Source of the DNA: Escherichia phage vB_EcoM_EC001 | Length of the DNA: 64,000 bases | Sequence record: MN445185.1 | Direction: 5' to 3' (one strand) | Shown: positions 2,141-37,810 of the stretch, in pieces | Layout: the number at the start of each line of letters is the position of its first letter | Numbering within the stretch: the first letter of the stretch is position 1 | Notes under the pieces: model-generated | Seen by the model: only the letters and a program-made list of their open reading frames with translations | Told to the model about the DNA's origin: nothing | The model's database searches: none | Translations under genes and position numbers: made by a program

Positions 2141-2216
2141 AGGAAAGTGACGCAATTGGTAGCGTACCGGTCTCCAAAACCGGCTGTTTAGAGTTCGAGT
2201 CTCTACTTTCCTGCCA
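2141..2216 (+). tRNA. tRNA-Trp (anticodon CCA), CCA end encoded
   Basis: Hand-folded 76-nt cloverleaf: acceptor aggaaag/ctttcct 7 bp, D stem acgc/gcgt, anticodon stem ccggt/accgg with loop ctCCAaa, T stem tagag/ctcta, T loop ttcgagt, discriminator g, CCA. Anticodon and T arms closely match E. coli tRNA-Trp. Confidence 0.8.
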
Positions 2217-3300: not shown

Positions 3301-3373
3301 GGCTTTGTAGCTCAGGTAGGTAGAGCAGCCTCTTCGAGGAAGGTCGCTGGTTCGAGACCGGTCAAAGCAAGAG
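3301..3373 (+). tRNA. tRNA-like element, possibly a degenerate tRNA or pseudogene (anticodon arm does not fold canonically)
   Basis: Canonical D arm gtagctcaggtaggtagagc and T arm gctgg-ttcgaga-ccggt, acceptor 6 of 7 bp, but only 19 nt between D and T arms so no standard anticodon stem-loop. Confidence 0.35.
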
Positions 3374-18741: not shown

Positions 18742-20076
18742 GTGAGAAAGGTACCAAAATTCTACGGAATATCCGGCCGGTTGGTTAGTCAGGATAACTA
18801 TTTGTCCGATTTGCAAATAGAAGCTGCTGCCAAAGGTATTAAACCACCCACTATTATTAACGATGTCGCCGTTAACGGGGATGCGATCGAGGTTGCTGAA
18901 CTTATCGATCGCATGGTACAGAACAGAATCGTTGACGAAGAACTGAACTCTGCACCGATTTGTAGTTTGGATTGTCCGGCACCGATCGCGCATCGTTACA
19001 ATCTCGGTTGTAAGTGTCCGACGTGTGGCTATGTTGTAACTGAACATCGAATTGAATCCGATGTCTGGTTACGTGCACCTGATGAAATGGGTAACTTCGT
19101 CAACCCACGATTCTGGGCAATGTTCAATGCTTTCTTTAATAGCAAGTTGAAGAAGTTTGAACGTAACAAGGTCACTATCGAACGCGGTAATGACTTGATG
19201 ATGTGGATGATTGACCCGTATTACCGTATAGAAGAACCAGACGGTAAACGCGCACATGCTGTGAAACGTGTATTGGAAGAACATGGTTTCGTTCGTGGCT
19301 TGCGCAATCTGGTTGATAACCACGTTAGTATCTTTAACATCCTTACCACGCCAGAAGCCTGGAAGGAAATCTTCGCACCTAATCGGCATAACGCCGCTGA
19401 AGGTGAACGCTTACGTTTACAATGGAAGGAGCTATTCGAAACGCAACGACACGCATTCTTCCCAAGACACTTACCGCTAATCTCCTCTAAACTTATCGTT
19501 ACTGAGGAAGGTCGTCGTGGTGTCATGGTAGACCCAGTGTTCACGGGTGCTATTGATGCGGTGAAAAATATCGCGTTGCTCTATACGCGGCGTAAAGCGA
19601 TCGAACCACGTTTTCTGATTAGTCGTGCTTTGAAAGCGAACCGTCAGTTAACGTACTTCCACATGGACTTCCGTCGTGAGTCTATGGAAGGTAAACCGGG
19701 TGACTATCGTGCGAAATTGGGTTCTACCCACATCCCGTTCGGTGGTCGTGCAACCATCTCACCTATCTCAGAACCACATGATGCCTGGAAGTTAAAAGCA
19801 CCATGGCGTTGGATGGTTGGGTTGATGTCGACCCACATCGAGAACAAACTGCTACGACGCGGTTATTCGTCACGGCAGTGTGAACGTATCGTTGCGAAAG
19901 CGGCAATGCAGTATGACCCGCTTGTAGATGAAATCTTTAAAGAACTGATTCGTGAATCCCCAGGCGGTCTTGGGATCATGGTCATACCGCTACGTAACCC
20001 AACGCTGGTACAGTTGTCTATTCAAACGCTGTACATCGATGAAGTTGTTACCGATGTTAACCAGTGTTCGCTGCGT
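18742..20076 (+). CDS. multisubunit RNA polymerase beta-prime-like subunit, N-terminal fragment, exon 1 (3-prime boundary approximate)
   Basis: GTG start. Zinc-ribbon CSLDCPAPIAHRYNLGCKCPTCG; LRNPTLVQLSIQ...CSL resembles RQPTLHRLGIQ...HPLVC just upstream of the catalytic loop. ORF continues 58 codons into the intron to stop at 20250. Confidence 0.65.
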
Positions 20077-20453
20077 ATCTCTGACCGTGTGATCAAGATG
20101 GCTAACGGTTCGAAAAGAGCCCCATCGGACGGGAAACCTCTGATGCGTATTCTCCTGAAATGCTGGGAAACCCTAAAGCGTATCTACCAGAAATGGGGAC
20201 GAAAGTCTGAAACAACAGATACGATGGCCTACGCTAAACAATACTGCTAACGGTTGTGATAATGGGTAATCAGCAGCGAAGCCTCGTGAGAGGAACGTTC
20301 AACGACTATCGCTGAAATGCGAGTAGGGGTCCCAGTGGACTTCGAAGTGGGAGAACACCTAAGGCGATAGCTATGGTGAAGATATAGTCTGTGCCTTATC
20401 GAGAGATAAGGAGGGTGTCTTAGCACACCTGCTGTATACGGAAACGGTATACG
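20077..20453 (+). ncRNA. group I self-splicing intron (no internal ORF), boundaries +/- about 10 nt
   Basis: Conserved core elements R (GTTCAACGACTA, 20297..20308) and S (AAGATATAGTC, 20379..20389) with complementary gacta/tagtc. Frame changes between flanking coding segments; beta-prime homology stops at CSLR and resumes at DKQDFDGDQ. Confidence 0.75.
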
Positions 20454-20693
20454 GTGGACAAACAGGATTTCGATGGCGACCAGTTCCAGGTACGTTTACC
20501 AGTCGATGAAACTGAGATGAAGTTGGCGCTCCAATTCCGTCCAGATAACGGCTTTATGTCTTCTACTGATGTGGACCGCGTAGAACACGGCATGGTTTTA
20601 CATAACGAGCTAATCAGTATGCAGAACCAGTTCCTTATTGAAGCAGATGAGGATGATGAAGAAGGCATTCCGTTGGAAGCGGTGATGGGCTAA
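20454..20693 (+). CDS. RNA polymerase beta-prime-like N-terminal fragment, exon 2 (catalytic DFDGDQ loop)
   Basis: Begins VDKQDFDGDQFQVRLPVDETEMKLA, matching [23 protein letters not shown]; ends 79 codons later. Confidence 0.65.
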   Translation: MDKQDFDGDQFQVRLPVDETEMKLALQFRPDNGFMSSTDVDRVEHGMVLHNELISMQNQFLIEADEDDEEGIPLEAVMG

Positions 20694-34751: not shown

Positions 34752-34777
34752 GAGGGGCCTTGCGCCCCTCTTTTTTT
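34752..34777 (+). terminator. intrinsic terminator (gaggggccttgcgcccctc plus T-run)
   Basis: Hairpin plus T-run after the RNAP genes. Confidence 0.55.
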
Positions 34778-34794: not shown

Positions 34795-37539
34795 ATGGTA
34801 GAAATTCAAATGACTTACACGAGTATGGGGGTACGGGTTGAAGTCCCTATCCGCCAGGCTGAAAGGGCCATACTCGCGTGGGCCGAAGAGAATATGCACG
34901 CCCCAAAGATGGGCAAGCAACATGGACGAATAACTACGGAACGCGGTGACGCGTACTACGCCCACATTCCGTCTTTAAGGACGTTCATTTTCCATAAAGT
35001 GTTCGCTGAGAAGATTAAACATATCCTCCAACGAGCAGCAATTGAATATGCTTTTCAGTACAAGCTTACAGAGCACCATCCTGAGCGAGGAACACCTTAC
35101 TGCTGTACATTTGATAACTACGGCTTCTCGATGGTAGAAAGCGATCCGGAGTCGCGTTTCTACTATCAGAACGAGGTTGTGGATGCAGCGTCCGATCCAA
35201 ACCGACCACAGACAATCTTTGCCATTCAGACAGGGAGAGGAAAATGCTGTGCTCATGGTACGCGTGTGCGTGTACCGGGTGGTTGGAAGAACATTGAGGA
35301 TATACAGCTAGGTGATTACGTTACGGGGCGTGACGGAAAACCAGCAATGGTCTCTGGAGTGTTCCCACAGGGTGTGGTTGACCTGTATCAGGTGACGTTT
35401 TGGGATGGTAGGAGTGTTGACGTATGTGGCGAGCACTTGTGGCAAAGCTACTACGTTAATACCACCGAGAATCGTCGCTGGGGTGTACGTGATACCCTAG
35501 AGATGAAACGTTTAATTTCGATGCCTAATCCACGGGTATACATCCCATTACCAGAACCAGAGGAAATGCCAGCTAAGGATTTTGTCATTCATCCGTATTT
35601 ACTCGGTATCCTCTTGGGTGATGGCTCCCTATCGATGCCTGGTGTTTTATACACCAAAGGCGATGTGGAGATTCGTGACCGTGTTGCTGAGGTCATGCCC
35701 GCTGGACATGCAATCCATGATTCATCGTACAGCGATGGGATAACGAAGTGCATCTCTTGTCCCGGCGGTGTTAACCTTGTCCGCAGAGAGCTTGAGCGGT
35801 TAGGGTTAATTGGCTGCAGGTCTTGGGAAAAGTTCATACCTGGAGATTACTTCGAAACGTCCATCGAACAACGGTGGGAGTTGTTGCGTGGCTTGATGGA
35901 TACTGACGGTACTGTGGATAAGGATGGTGGTACGCCTTCTTTCTGTTCCACCAGTAAAGAATTGGCTTTAGGTGTTCAGGAACTTGTGCGGTCTTTAGGA
36001 GGGATTGCAACACTACGCGAGAAACGTCCGTTCTTCACACACAACGGCGAACGTCGTGAAGGTCGTTTGGCTTATAACGTCTCCATCCGCCACAAAACAC
36101 CATCGAAACTGTTCCACCTTCCAAGGAAGAAAGAACTGTGTCGTGATAACGGACAATACACCGATATACTGAAACTCCGTGTTAAGTCTATCGAACCCAT
36201 TGGTCGTGATCTTGCCACGTGTATTCGTGTCGAGAACGACGATGCGTTGTTTGTGGTGGACAAGTGGATCGTTACGCACAACACCAAGACCTGTATGAAG
36301 TCGATGGTTAAACGGGGAACCCGTACCGCATTGATTCACCGTCCGTCGTACGTTCCCAAATGGCTGTTTGACGTCTGTGATGATGAAACAGGACTTCGTA
36401 TACTTCGTGACGAGGTGTTAGTTTGTACAGGCGTACAGGCGATTTACGACGCGCTGGAGATGGGTAAGTCGGGAGAGCTAGATAGTCGTGGTATTAAGGT
36501 AATAATCCTCCCCACGGTCTCTCTACAGCGTTTCCTGAAGGAGTACATTAACACTGCTGCGACTAACCCTGTGGACCTGGATACGTTTTATGATGTTCTG
36601 GGTGTGGGTCTGGTGGCGATGGATGAGGTGCACGAGCATTTTCACCTCGTTTACATGGCTGGTATAATGTTGAACCCTCCGGCATCGATAGAGATGTCTG
36701 CAACCCTTAAGCCGGGTAGCAGTAAAGCCTTTATCGCGGAGCGGTATTTAGAACGTTTCCCAATGGAGTACCGAATCAGTATTCCAATCATTCCGGTGGT
36801 TGACGTGAAGGCGTTGTACTATCGACTGGATGATAAGAAGTTTGCGTGGTGGGCGTCGAAGATGACGCCGTATAACCACAAGCTCTTCGAAGGGAAGCTG
36901 ATTAAAGAGAACTTGCATTTAGAATACGCGAACATGATCTGGGATGTGGTTGAGAAATCGTTCCTTAAACGGTATCAACCTGGCCAAAAATGTTTGATAC
37001 TCTTTGCTACGGTAGCGATGTGTGAGTTCTTTACCGAGTATGTGAAAGATAAGTTATCGCGTGACCCTGTATTCCATCCGTTGATGGTGGCGAAATATAA
37101 TGCAGGCGATTCGTATGACGACTTTATCCAAGCAGACTTCTCTATCTCCACACCGGGGAAAGCGGGGACTGCGGTCGATAAACCTGGGTTGGTACACATG
37201 TACATTTCAACCCCGGTAGAAGACCAGCAACTGAACGAACAGATGGCCGGTCGTCCACGTAAGATTCTCCACAACGAATGGGGTGAAATAGACCCAACGG
37301 TGTGGTTATTCCATGCGTATAACGTACCGAAGCATTGCAATTACCTGAATGCCCGCCAGAAATCACTCAAGGATGTCGTATTGTCGTTCCGTATCGCGAC
37401 ATCCCCCTACGTTGTAAGGAAATCACATGCTCACTCCGCCGCGTCCAGCAGAGCCGCTGCCACCCTACATCGGAATGACTTTAGCAAGTTTTCTCGAAAA
37501 CGTTCTAAAGGCGTATCCCGGCGTAGAAGACGTCGCTAA
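34795..37539 (+). CDS. SF2 (DExH-box) helicase interrupted by an intein in the Walker A motif; 3-prime end uncertain
   Basis: Start at ATG with GAGGGG RBS (track ORF 34738). Extein motifs: P-loop GRGK-[intein]-TKT, DEVHEH, SAT, QMAGRPRK. Basic C-terminal tail overlaps the next ORF. Confidence 0.65.
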   Translation: MVEIQMTYTSMGVRVEVPIRQAERAILAWAEENMHAPKMGKQHGRITTERGDAYYAHIPSLRTFIFHKVFAEKIKHILQRAAIEYAFQYKLTEHHPERGTPYCCTFDNYGFSMVESDPESRFYYQNEVVDAASDPNRPQTIFAIQTGRGKCCAHGTRVRVPGGWKNIEDIQLGDYVTGRDGKPAMVSGVFPQGVVDLYQVTFWDGRSVDVCGEHLWQSYYVNTTENRRWGVRDTLEMKRLISMPNPRVYIPLPEPEEMPAKDFVIHPYLLGILLGDGSLSMPGVLYTKGDVEIRDRVAEVMPAGHAIHDSSYSDGITKCISCPGGVNLVRRELERLGLIGCRSWEKFIPGDYFETSIEQRWELLRGLMDTDGTVDKDGGTPSFCSTSKELALGVQELVRSLGGIATLREKRPFFTHNGERREGRLAYNVSIRHKTPSKLFHLPRKKELCRDNGQYTDILKLRVKSIEPIGRDLATCIRVENDDALFVVDKWIVTHNTKTCMKSMVKRGTRTALIHRPSYVPKWLFDVCDDETGLRILRDEVLVCTGVQAIYDALEMGKSGELDSRGIKVIILPTVSLQRFLKEYINTAATNPVDLDTFYDVLGVGLVAMDEVHEHFHLVYMAGIMLNPPASIEMSATLKPGSSKAFIAERYLERFPMEYRISIPIIPVVDVKALYYRLDDKKFAWWASKMTPYNHKLFEGKLIKENLHLEYANMIWDVVEKSFLKRYQPGQKCLILFATVAMCEFFTEYVKDKLSRDPVFHPLMVAKYNAGDSYDDFIQADFSISTPGKAGTAVDKPGLVHMYISTPVEDQQLNEQMAGRPRKILHNEWGEIDPTVWLFHAYNVPKHCNYLNARQKSLKDVVLSFRIATSPYVVRKSHAHSAASSRAAATLHRNDFSKFSRKRSKGVSRRRRRR
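35245..36282 (+). mobile_element. intein (346 aa) with double-motif LAGLIDADG homing endonuclease
   Basis: Begins CCAHGTRVRVPGG...IEDIQLGDYV directly after P-loop GK; contains LLGILLGDGSL and LRGLMDTDGTV; ends VVDKWIVTHN followed by Thr. Predicted spliced P-loop is GRGKTKT. Confidence 0.7.
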
Positions 37540-37810
37540 GAAACTCTGCACCGACGCCACTATCAACCAAGCGTTTCATTACTACATGGTCACTGAACAT
37601 TACAGTGGCCTGTTCCTTAACCAACGCGGGTTGACGTATTACGTCACCCGCACGTCAAGTATCCGTAACACTTCGTCGTACGAGCTTTATACGTACGTGT
37701 TGTGGAATGAGAACCCGGCCGGTAGTGTCGATCAGAATCCAAAGATGGCTTATCGTCTTTACTCTGAAAAATGGCACGATTGGGTGACTGTTCCACACGA
37801 TGCAAGTTAA
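37475..37810 (+). CDS. hypothetical protein (start uncertain)
   Basis: Internal ATG (MTLASFLEN) of track ORF 37427..37810, which overlaps the helicase 3-prime end. Confidence 0.4.
   Translation: MTLASFLENVLKAYPGVEDVAKKLCTDATINQAFHYYMVTEHYSGLFLNQRGLTYYVTRTSSIRNTSSYELYTYVLWNENPAGSVDQNPKMAYRLYSEKWHDWVTVPHDAS

Follow-up and report, generated by a model that had tools for sequence, protein, structure and literature searches.

What occupies the 346 codons that interrupt the P-loop of a helicase gene in Escherichia phage vB_EcoM_EC001, and what becomes of the encoded enzyme? The gene lies in a stretch of 64,000 nucleotides (nt) from this phage (sequence record MN445185.1), which was analyzed as a whole and is called the window below. 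A first-pass annotation of this DNA had read the insertion as an intein with a LAGLIDADG homing endonuclease, set into a superfamily 2 (SF2) helicase. With a probability that we put at about 0.88, the segment is a functional and recently mobile intein, probably of the class 3 lineage, seated between the invariant Walker A Lys and Thr in the helicase of an SPN3US-like (Seoulvirus) jumbo phage. All features and their coordinates are collected in Table 1.

An exact in-frame insertion in the Walker A motif

Positions 35245 to 36282 translate into 346 in-frame codons with zero stops. The product opens with CCAHGTRV directly after AIQTGRGK and closes with VVDKWIVTHN, followed by TKT, which places the insertion point between the Lys and the Thr of Walker A (GRGK/TKT, the slash marking the point); this is the "classic" position for insertions into P-loops (PMC5050341). 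DNA alignments with the helicase genes of phages SEGD1 and SPN3US showed one single gap of 1038 bp covering precisely this segment, and the same exact gap was found in the genes of SaP7, MET_P1, SPFM4 and Proteus phage 7 in a multiple alignment. The segment is an in-frame insert with exact boundaries, and these intein-less relatives lack precisely its 1038 bp.

Translation and alignment to intein-free helicase homologs thereby bear out the first-pass annotation, which had described a 346-codon insertion with Cys directly after GRGK and VVDKWIVTHN before Thr. The restored P-loop GRGKTKT that it had foreseen upon removal of the segment was confirmed as well, and it has natural counterparts: intein-less alleles read GRGK/TKS (for example GRGKTKS in SEGD1), and SPN3US reads GAGK/SKS. 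A register starting at the second Cys was rejected, as the intein-less alleles (GRGK/TK followed by S or T) permit the clean excision of Cys1 to Asn346 only.

Splicing and endonuclease domains

Profile, sequence and structure comparisons support, at levels well beyond chance, the segment as an intein with a LAGLIDADG homing endonuclease. In Pfam it matched LAGLIDADG_3 (E=1.3e-10, 41.9 bits vs a cutoff of 22.5) and Hom_end (1.2e-4, 22.6 bits vs a cutoff of 21.1), whereas its matches in PHROG were intein-containing families only (terminase, primase, helicase loader; down to 1.7e-36). Sequence matches in the PDB comprised the gp41-1 intein, the class 3 DnaB-1 intein of M. smegmatis (Msm) and PI-SceI. 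The 99 database homologues (down to 1.5e-73) reside in diverse hosts, mostly P-loop proteins (PhoH, AAA_30, terminase, DnaB, SNF2) and also PD-(D/E)XK-domain proteins. An AlphaFold model computed from 49 aligned sequences reached a predicted local distance difference test score of 94.8 and a predicted template modelling (TM) score of 0.93. Searched with Foldseek, this model had its best PDB match in PI-SceI (E=1.2e-17, TM 0.72), with further matches to the TliVMA and PhoVMA inteins and PI-PfuI; the best mini-intein matches were the class 3 DnaB-1 inteins of Msm and M. chimaera (Mch), with target-normalised TM scores of 0.78–0.80. The alpha/beta repeats of the modelled endonuclease match PI-SceI and I-DmoI.

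In the splicing (Hint) domain, His64, His345-Asn346 and Thr+1 are all intact, and the +1 residue is Thr or Ser across the 49-sequence alignment. Both LAGLIDADG-like motifs that had been noticed earlier were recovered, each with its catalytic Asp. We infer that the precursor is spliced into helicase and free intein because phages with the interrupted helicase P-loop are viable and because the ratio of nonsynonymous to synonymous substitutions (dN/dS) lies at only 0.008–0.05 in the Hint parts; an active endonuclease is likewise predicted.

A class 3 signature with an unusual N terminus

Class 3 inteins are defined by a Trp-Cys-Thr (WCT) triplet together with Thr or Ser at +1 and sit mostly in helicase P-loops (PMC2807308). 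Their first residue is usually non-nucleophilic and the reaction is started by Cys F:4; a phage origin has been proposed for them (PMC2807308, PMC3196547, PMC4031507). The triplet is present in the window intein as Trp66 (B:12), Cys326 (F:4) and Thr344 (G:5), together with Thr+1. Among 60 aligned homologues, Trp occupies B:12 in 58, Cys occupies F:4 in 56 and Thr occupies G:5 in 58, while +1 is Thr or Ser save for one Ile and three unaligned sequences. Residue 1 is Ala in 44 of the 60, and Cys1 was confined to the window intein and one Salmonella Derby assembly contig. Since the window, Lh1B and Derby contig inteins start with Cys, the non-nucleophilic first residue of class 3 is missing here. 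Such cases have been recorded before: WCT inteins with Ser1 or Cys1 made up 3 of 37 as of 2009 and were then left without a class (Tori et al. 2010, PMC2807308), and in later wording an N-terminal nucleophile is "not required" in class 3 (PMC5222942).

Judged by descent and active-site signature, the window intein is probably a member of the WCT (class 3) lineage: all nearest relatives combine the triplet with a non-nucleophilic residue 1, and among mini-inteins those closest in fold belong to class 3. The canonical intein C terminus noticed earlier, His-Asn followed by Thr, holds. Cys at position 1 would suggest a canonical class 1 intein, but the window intein departs from the class 1 standard: it has the signature of the WCT lineage, and near-identical alleles have Ala1.

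These alleles come from phages SPLA3, SPLA5c and JN03, whose inteins share 99.1%, 98.5% and 96.5% DNA identity with that of the window. They start with GCT CTC GCG (Ala-Leu-Ala), compared with TGC TGT GCT (Cys-Cys-Ala) in the window and Lh1B. The SPLA3 intein differs from that of the window at just 9 nt, which in the protein amounts to two substitutions, Cys1 to Ala and Cys2 to Leu. Seven of these differences are crowded into the first 9 nt (35245..35253), TGCTGTGCT in the window and GCTCTCGCG in SPLA3 and JN03, whereas the other 1029 nt hold two vs SPLA3. All six bases of codons 1 and 2 are changed relative to the Ala-Leu alleles, which drift by point mutation hardly explains; the 9-nt cluster may have arisen where recombination joined it to a Derby-type allele, or as a scar of repair.

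Because the Ala1 phages SPLA3, SPLA5c and JN03 are viable isolates, the active site of the window intein should be able to splice without an N-terminal nucleophile. As these near-identical alleles share the same active site, we lean towards Cys326, and not Cys1, as the residue that initiates splicing, and Cys1 is probably dispensable as a nucleophile. A bolder idea, which we consider unlikely, is that Cys1-Cys2 represents an adaptive, re-acquired N-terminal nucleophile, making this a dual-pathway intein in which either Cys1 or Cys326 starts the reaction, or a switch gated by redox state or metal. For such a switch, Cys1, Cys2, Cys61 and Cys326 would cluster at the active site and govern how an essential helicase matures. 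If true, the re-acquired Cys1 and its natural Ala-Leu sisters would bridge the chemistries of class 1 and class 3 as an intermediate that still exists, and would speak against the proposed inability of these classes to change into each other by divergence (PMC7664689). Alleles of the two types, which differ at residues 1 and 2 only, offer a ready test of whether an N-terminal Cys can be used by, or regulates, a class 3 active site.

Sporadic distribution, recoded flanks and mosaic alleles

A megablast search with the helicase gene against 50,697 phage records returned 41 matches. The whole gene was covered by four records (Lh1B, SPLA3, SPLA5c and JN03), and about 30 Seoulvirus records matched in two pieces totalling 1764 bp, that is, 2802 minus 1038. 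The intein is carried by 4 of about 35 Seoulvirus records. At 100% identity (1038/1038 nt), the window intein is the same as that of Lh1B, with exteins (the flanking parts of the host protein) 97.0% and 97.8% identical between the two phages; the window exteins are closest to those of the intein-less SEGD1 (99.5% and 99.7%). In the SPLA3 group, the N-extein is 88% and the C-extein 98% identical to that of the window.

The codons that border the insertion point are recoded in step with the intein. The 12 nt before and the 9 nt after it read GGR AGA GGA AAA / ACC AAG ACC in every intein-plus allele, vs GGT CGY GGK AAR / ACG AAR TCG in intein-less alleles. When the exteins of the window and SEGD1 were compared, 8 differences fell within these 21 flanking nt and 6 in the other 1686 nt; the N-extein outside its last 12 nt differs at 2 of 438 nt (99.5% identical). 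We propose that the recoded upstream flank represents a co-conversion tract, a protection of the site from the endonuclease, or both. Together, the patchy occurrence among relatives, the identity of two inteins whose exteins have diverged and the recoded flanks form the pattern expected of homing with short co-conversion tracts and target-site immunity, and we regard them as indirect evidence for such homing. Base composition gave no signal of foreign origin (GC content of 49.2% in the intein vs 48.4–48.6% in the exteins).

A third allele of the window intein, at the same site, was found in contig AAPGIT010000170.1 (1357 bp) of a Salmonella Derby assembly; although assembled with bacterial DNA, the contig is presumably of phage origin. 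Relative to the window, its Hint parts are about 90–95% identical in DNA, its endonuclease region (residues 116–300) 69% in protein and about 50–60% in DNA, so that the allele looks like the product of an endonuclease-module swap. The two alleles agree fully in the Cys-Cys codons and in the upstream flank. In the comparison with this allele, dN/dS was 0.008 in the N-terminal Hint part (synonymous divergence dS 0.49) and 0.05 in the C-terminal part, with dS ranging from 0.37 to 0.49; dS of the endonuclease region is saturated, and no value is computable for it. The whole intein gave a dN/dS of about 0.07–0.11 vs JN03. The intein is thus under purifying selection. At least three mosaic alleles exist: Cys-Cys with endonuclease version A (window, Lh1B), Ala-Leu with version A (SPLA3, SPLA5c, JN03) and Cys-Cys with version B (Derby contig).

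Proposed mechanism and alternative explanations

Translation of the gene would yield a 104-kDa precursor (computed as 914 amino acids (aa), 104.3 kDa), from which the Hint domain would excise the 39-kDa intein (346 aa, 39.0 kDa) while joining the exteins into a 65-kDa helicase (568 aa, 65.3 kDa) with the P-loop GRGKTKT. The sizes predicted earlier need slight correction: the spliced helicase comes to 568 aa instead of roughly 587, given the start at ATG 34795, and the free intein to 39.0 kDa vs roughly 38 kDa. In the proposed reaction, Cys326, aided by His64 and Trp66, would attack the peptide bond between Lys-1 and Cys1 to form a branched thioester, the N-extein would be transferred to Thr+1, cyclisation of Asn346, aided by His345, would release the intein, and an O-to-N acyl shift would complete the peptide bond. 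Thr+1 would thereby double as the Walker A Thr and as a splice nucleophile. The LAGLIDADG endonuclease of the free intein would then cut the Walker A-coding site in intein-less helicase alleles of co-infecting relatives, and repair off the intein-bearing copy would spread the intein together with a few flanking codons.

Several points weigh against parts of this scheme. The Hint and LAGLIDADG profile matches anticipated in the first-pass annotation were obtained above threshold on the endonuclease side, but the Hint models stayed below the Pfam gathering thresholds (Hom_end_hint, 4.2e-7, 30.6 bits vs a cutoff of 32.1; Hint_2). The recoded flanks could be an optimisation of the splicing context and not a trace of co-conversion or cleavage immunity, and precise losses could in principle produce the sporadic distribution. 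In addition, Cys1 is a competent class 1 nucleophile that has been kept, as part of Cys-Cys, in two alleles diverged to a dS of about 0.5, which hints at selection and not neutrality, and class 1 inteins with Cys at F:4 are known (PMC3196547). The latter points would fit a canonical class 1 intein, in which Cys1 would undergo the N-to-S acyl shift, Thr+1 would attack the linear thioester and Asn346 would cyclise, Cys326 having a supporting role like that of Asp F:4 in standard inteins. The position of Cys1 directly after Lys-1, the replacement of all six nucleotides of codons 1 and 2, which looks beyond drift, and the precedent of the three WCT inteins with Ser1 or Cys1 speak for it too. We hold this possible but doubtful. 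The Ala1 alleles encode otherwise (nearly) the same protein, so the active site works without Cys1, and every other relative found pairs the WCT triplet with a non-nucleophilic residue 1. Moreover, a WCT triplet grafted onto the class 1 gp41-1 intein spliced inefficiently (PMC7664689); therefore, the class 1 and class 3 active-site designs are not freely interchangeable, and it is the class 3 design that the window intein has.

An intein that splices while its endonuclease is inactive appears rather improbable. Its patchiness would then reflect vertical inheritance, ordinary recombination in co-infection or precise losses, and the mosaic Seoulvirus genomes, as seen in the unequal extein identities of the SPLA3 group, indicate that general recombination could move an intein. 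Yet both LAGLIDADG motifs and the catalytic Asp residues are invariant or nearly so across 49–60 homologues, the dN/dS of the whole intein vs JN03 is low, the recoded 21-nt flank accompanies the intein in every intein-plus allele, and an intein identical to that of Lh1B sits within exteins closest to an intein-less phage. Hardly credible is a native or decayed domain retained in the mature helicase, be it a non-splicing pseudo-intein or a cleavage-only Hint-like domain. Among class 3 inteins, one has been described as a decayed pseudogene, Arsp-FB24 Arth_1007, but it is without His B:10 and Cys F:4 (PMC3196547), whereas the splicing residues of the window intein are all intact, with the low dN/dS of its Hint parts. 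Furthermore, a 346-aa insert splitting GK/T would, if retained, leave a conserved helicase unable to bind ATP, although the phages are viable and are propagated, and insert-less orthologues have the P-loop uninterrupted.

Related inteins and closest known systems

Tblastn searches of phage genomes identified homologous inteins of 41–57% identity at the same GK/T site of the orthologous helicase in Erwinia phage Kwan (gp48), Rebecca (gp251), Xanthomonas phage RTH11, Proteus phage 10 and Pseudomonas phage EL (ORF039). In PhiPA3, a homologous intein occupies the GK/T site of another protein, the SNF2-type helicase gp233. The inteins at the orthologous site resemble that of the window in architecture and WCT triplet as well; all six differ from it in residue 1, which is Val in Kwan, Leu in Proteus phage 10 and Ala in Rebecca, RTH11, EL and PhiPA3. 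Wherever the context was checked, the orthologous intein-bearing helicase genes were located downstream of an RNA polymerase gene. Presence/absence polymorphism recurs as well: the Kwan intein is missing from phage Wellington (sister genus Wellingtonvirus), with exteins 99.7% identical. Such natural intein-plus/minus pairs (window vs SEGD1, Kwan vs Wellington; exteins 99.5–99.7% identical) suit tests of homing and of endonuclease-mediated competition in the phage nucleus. Related inteins also occur in several copies per genome, at three places each in Pseudomonas phage EL and relatives and in Raoultella phage VB_ZK_P1, and at two in several Aeromonas phages.

Neither the window intein nor any of these homologues, that of PhiPA3 gp233 included, was labelled as an intein in the database records examined. 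In other jumbo phages, genes with related inteins are labelled helicase, terminase, DarB-like antirestriction, RNA polymerase beta subunit, gyrA or "DNA helicase/terminase"; the helicase of SPLA3 and SPLA5c is wrongly labelled "terminase large subunit", and other records have helicase or hypothetical protein. An intein family at a core-helicase site of nucleus-forming jumbo phages hence misleads annotation pipelines. Within the searchable library, literature searches for an intein in SPN3US, Seoulvirus, Lh1B, EC001 or the chimalliviruses returned nothing specific; a paper on the MIJ3 intein was set aside, as the split intein it deals with belongs to a DNA polymerase B and is unrelated. Selfish elements of this sort, inteins that carry an endonuclease and interrupt the P-loop of a phage helicase, are textbook knowledge, and to this extent the basic finding is ordinary: the window intein is an unannotated new member of a well-known kind.

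In its features, the window intein is like the class 3 prototype, MP-Be DnaB of mycobacteriophage Bethlehem (Tori et al. 2010, PMC2807308), which likewise interrupts a phage helicase, measures about 341 aa and has the WCT triplet, His B:10, His-Asn and Thr+1; that intein differs in having the non-nucleophilic Pro1 in place of Cys-Cys and a DnaB host in place of a jumbo-phage SF2-type helicase. The DnaB-1 mini-inteins of Msm and Mch (PDB 6bs8, 6rix, 6riy) share the WCT arrangement and are the best mini-intein match (sequence E=5.8e-6), but they are bacterial, start with Ala1 and have no endonuclease domain; splicing of Msm DnaB-1 is oxidation-sensitive owing to cysteines close to its active site (PMC6195587). 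PI-SceI of yeast VMA1, TliVMA and PI-PfuI, whose structures match best over the full length (E=1e-17, query-normalised TM 0.72), likewise combine Hint with a two-motif LAGLIDADG domain; unlike the window intein they are class 1 (Cys1, Cys+1) and possess an additional region for DNA recognition, and they share about 16% identity with it and reside in different host genes. The TerL1-a inteins of mycobacteriophages (Kelley et al. 2016, PMC5050341) also lie between the Walker A Lys and a nucleophilic Thr, are sporadic and are often 100% identical per insertion-site group, although their host is the large terminase subunit of actinobacteriophages. Finally, the intron-encoded homing endonuclease of PhiPA3 (Birkholz et al. 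2024, PMC11620839) is, like the window intein, associated with a self-splicing element in a core gene of a nucleus-forming jumbo phage, and it mediates interference competition between co-infecting jumbo phages. It belongs to an intron, targets a different gene and is experimentally supported, whereas homing of the window intein is proposed from sequence comparisons; by analogy, it is a plausible model for the effect of the window endonuclease on intein-less competitors.

A group I intron in the RNA polymerase beta-subunit gene

The first-pass annotation had pointed to an intron in the same region, and this stands: a group I intron splits the RNA polymerase beta-subunit gene (Table 1), which is annotated in Lh1B as two halves, 18742..20250 and 20454..20693. 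The intron is polymorphic within Seoulvirus. It is present in phages 1252, Lh1B, JN03, SPLA3 and SPLA5c, and about 356 bp are missing at its site in the SPFM phages, SPN3US, SEGD1, MET_P1 and SPLA1a. Intron and intein occur together in all four intein-plus database phages, the intron occurs alone in phage 1252, and both elements are absent from SEGD1 and SPN3US.

Host phage and helicase gene

The helicase gene is 98.5% identical (megablast) to that of Escherichia phage vB_EcoM_Lh1B, with the same coordinates, and by such similarity the source of the window matches the SPN3US-like jumbo phages of the genus Seoulvirus. The gene directly follows that of the RNA polymerase beta' subunit. Its true start is ATG 34795, which is preceded by a Shine-Dalgarno-like GAGGGG and an upstream terminator hairpin and whose equivalent is the annotated start in Lh1B, SEGD1 and SPN3US. 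TTG 34738, the start in a list of open reading frames, was rejected: it overlaps the upstream gene and the terminator hairpin, and the annotated relatives all use the ATG.

When the intein was removed in silico, the host protein displayed Walker A and, as had been noticed earlier, DEVHEH, SAT and QMAGRPRK downstream. The assignment to SF2 held in part. These motifs and a match to PHROG 16, "DNA helicase" (4.7e-58), agree with it, but the Pfam matches of the intein-less helicase to ResIII and DEAD (E=0.04–0.13) were below threshold, and a PDB sequence search with the intein-less helicase gave no meaningful match. Far-below-cutoff NCBIfam matches to intein-containing DnaB, RecA and GyrA models were discarded for host identity, as they stem from the intein itself. 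The SF2 assignment therefore rests on the motifs, PHROG 16 and the literature on a possible orthologue: RAY gp250, which may be the Agricanvirus orthologue of the window helicase, has been described as a core, nucleus-localised, non-virion SF2 helicase (PMC10299810).

Table 1. Features of the helicase gene, its intein and the companion intron, in window coordinates. Slashes mark the insertion point.
Feature	Position	Strand	Remarks
Group I intron	20090..20411	+	Rfam RF00028, 69.4 bits; splits RNA polymerase beta-subunit gene
Terminator-like GC hairpin and T-run	34752..34777 (hairpin 34752..34770)	+	7 pairs, 6 GC, then TTTTTTT
Helicase precursor gene (N-extein, intein, C-extein)	34795..37539	+	Open frame, 914 codons plus stop; PHROG 16
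N-extein, 150 aa	34795..35244	+	C-terminal end is first Walker A half, AIQTGRGK 35221..35244
Recoded upstream flank, GGG AGA GGA AAA	35233..35244	+	Intein-less GGT CGT GGG AAG; 5 of 12 nt differ from SEGD1, all synonymous
Intein, 346 aa	35245..36282	+	Equals gap of intein-less alleles; Pfam, PHROG and PDB matches; model; PI-SceI fold match
Block A, CCAHGTRVRVPGGW	35245..35286	+	Residues 1-2 Cys-Cys here, Ala-Leu in SPLA3, SPLA5c, JN03
Block B, CGEHLW	35425..35442	+	Cys61 (B:7), His64 (B:10), Trp66 (B:12); His64 and Trp66 invariant in 49-sequence alignment
LAGLIDADG homing-endonuclease domain, about intein residues 106-300	35560..36144	+	Pfam LAGLIDADG_3, Hom_end; model fold
LAGLIDADG motif 1, LLGILLGDG	35599..35625	+	Catalytic Asp126; Gly121, Gly125, Asp126 invariant
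LAGLIDADG motif 2, LRGLMDTDG	35884..35910	+	Catalytic Asp221, in at least 90% of sequences; Gly216, Leu217, Asp219, Gly222 invariant
Block F, ATCIRVE	36214..36234	+	Cys326 (F:4), position of class 3 branch-point nucleophile; invariant (49 sequences)
Block G, WIVTHN	36265..36282	+	Thr344 (G:5), His345, Asn346, all three invariant
C-extein, 418 aa	36283..37536	+	First residue Thr+1
Recoded downstream flank, ACC AAG ACC (T K T)	36283..36291	+	Intein-less ACG AAG TCG (T K S)
Helicase motif DEVHEH	36622..36639	+	C-extein
Helicase motif SAT	36697..36705	+	C-extein
Helicase motif QMAGRPRK	37240..37263	+	C-extein
SEGD1-type (intein-less) site			CAGACAGGTCGTGGGAAG/ACGAAGTCGTGTATG
Recoded (intein-plus) site			GGGAGAGGAAAA/ACCAAGACC

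The 46-nt gap between the RNA polymerase beta' and helicase genes contains a strong terminator-like hairpin (GAGGGGC...GCCCCTC, then T7), directly before the GAGGGG ribosome-binding site. At its other end, the helicase terminates in a run of six arginines (KGVSRRRRRR; 37516..37536, + strand), which is kept in SEGD1, SPN3US and Erwinia phage Kwan and absent from more distant orthologues. The final 113 nt of the gene are overlapped in another frame by an open reading frame of 127 aa (37427..37810, + strand), annotated as a hypothetical protein in Lh1B, SPN3US and JN03; SEGD1 differs in having a short coding sequence of 114 nt. Elsewhere in the window, Rfam identified two tRNA genes on the + strand, at 2141..2213 (63.6 bits) and at 3301..3370 (33.6 bits, barely over the gathering score).

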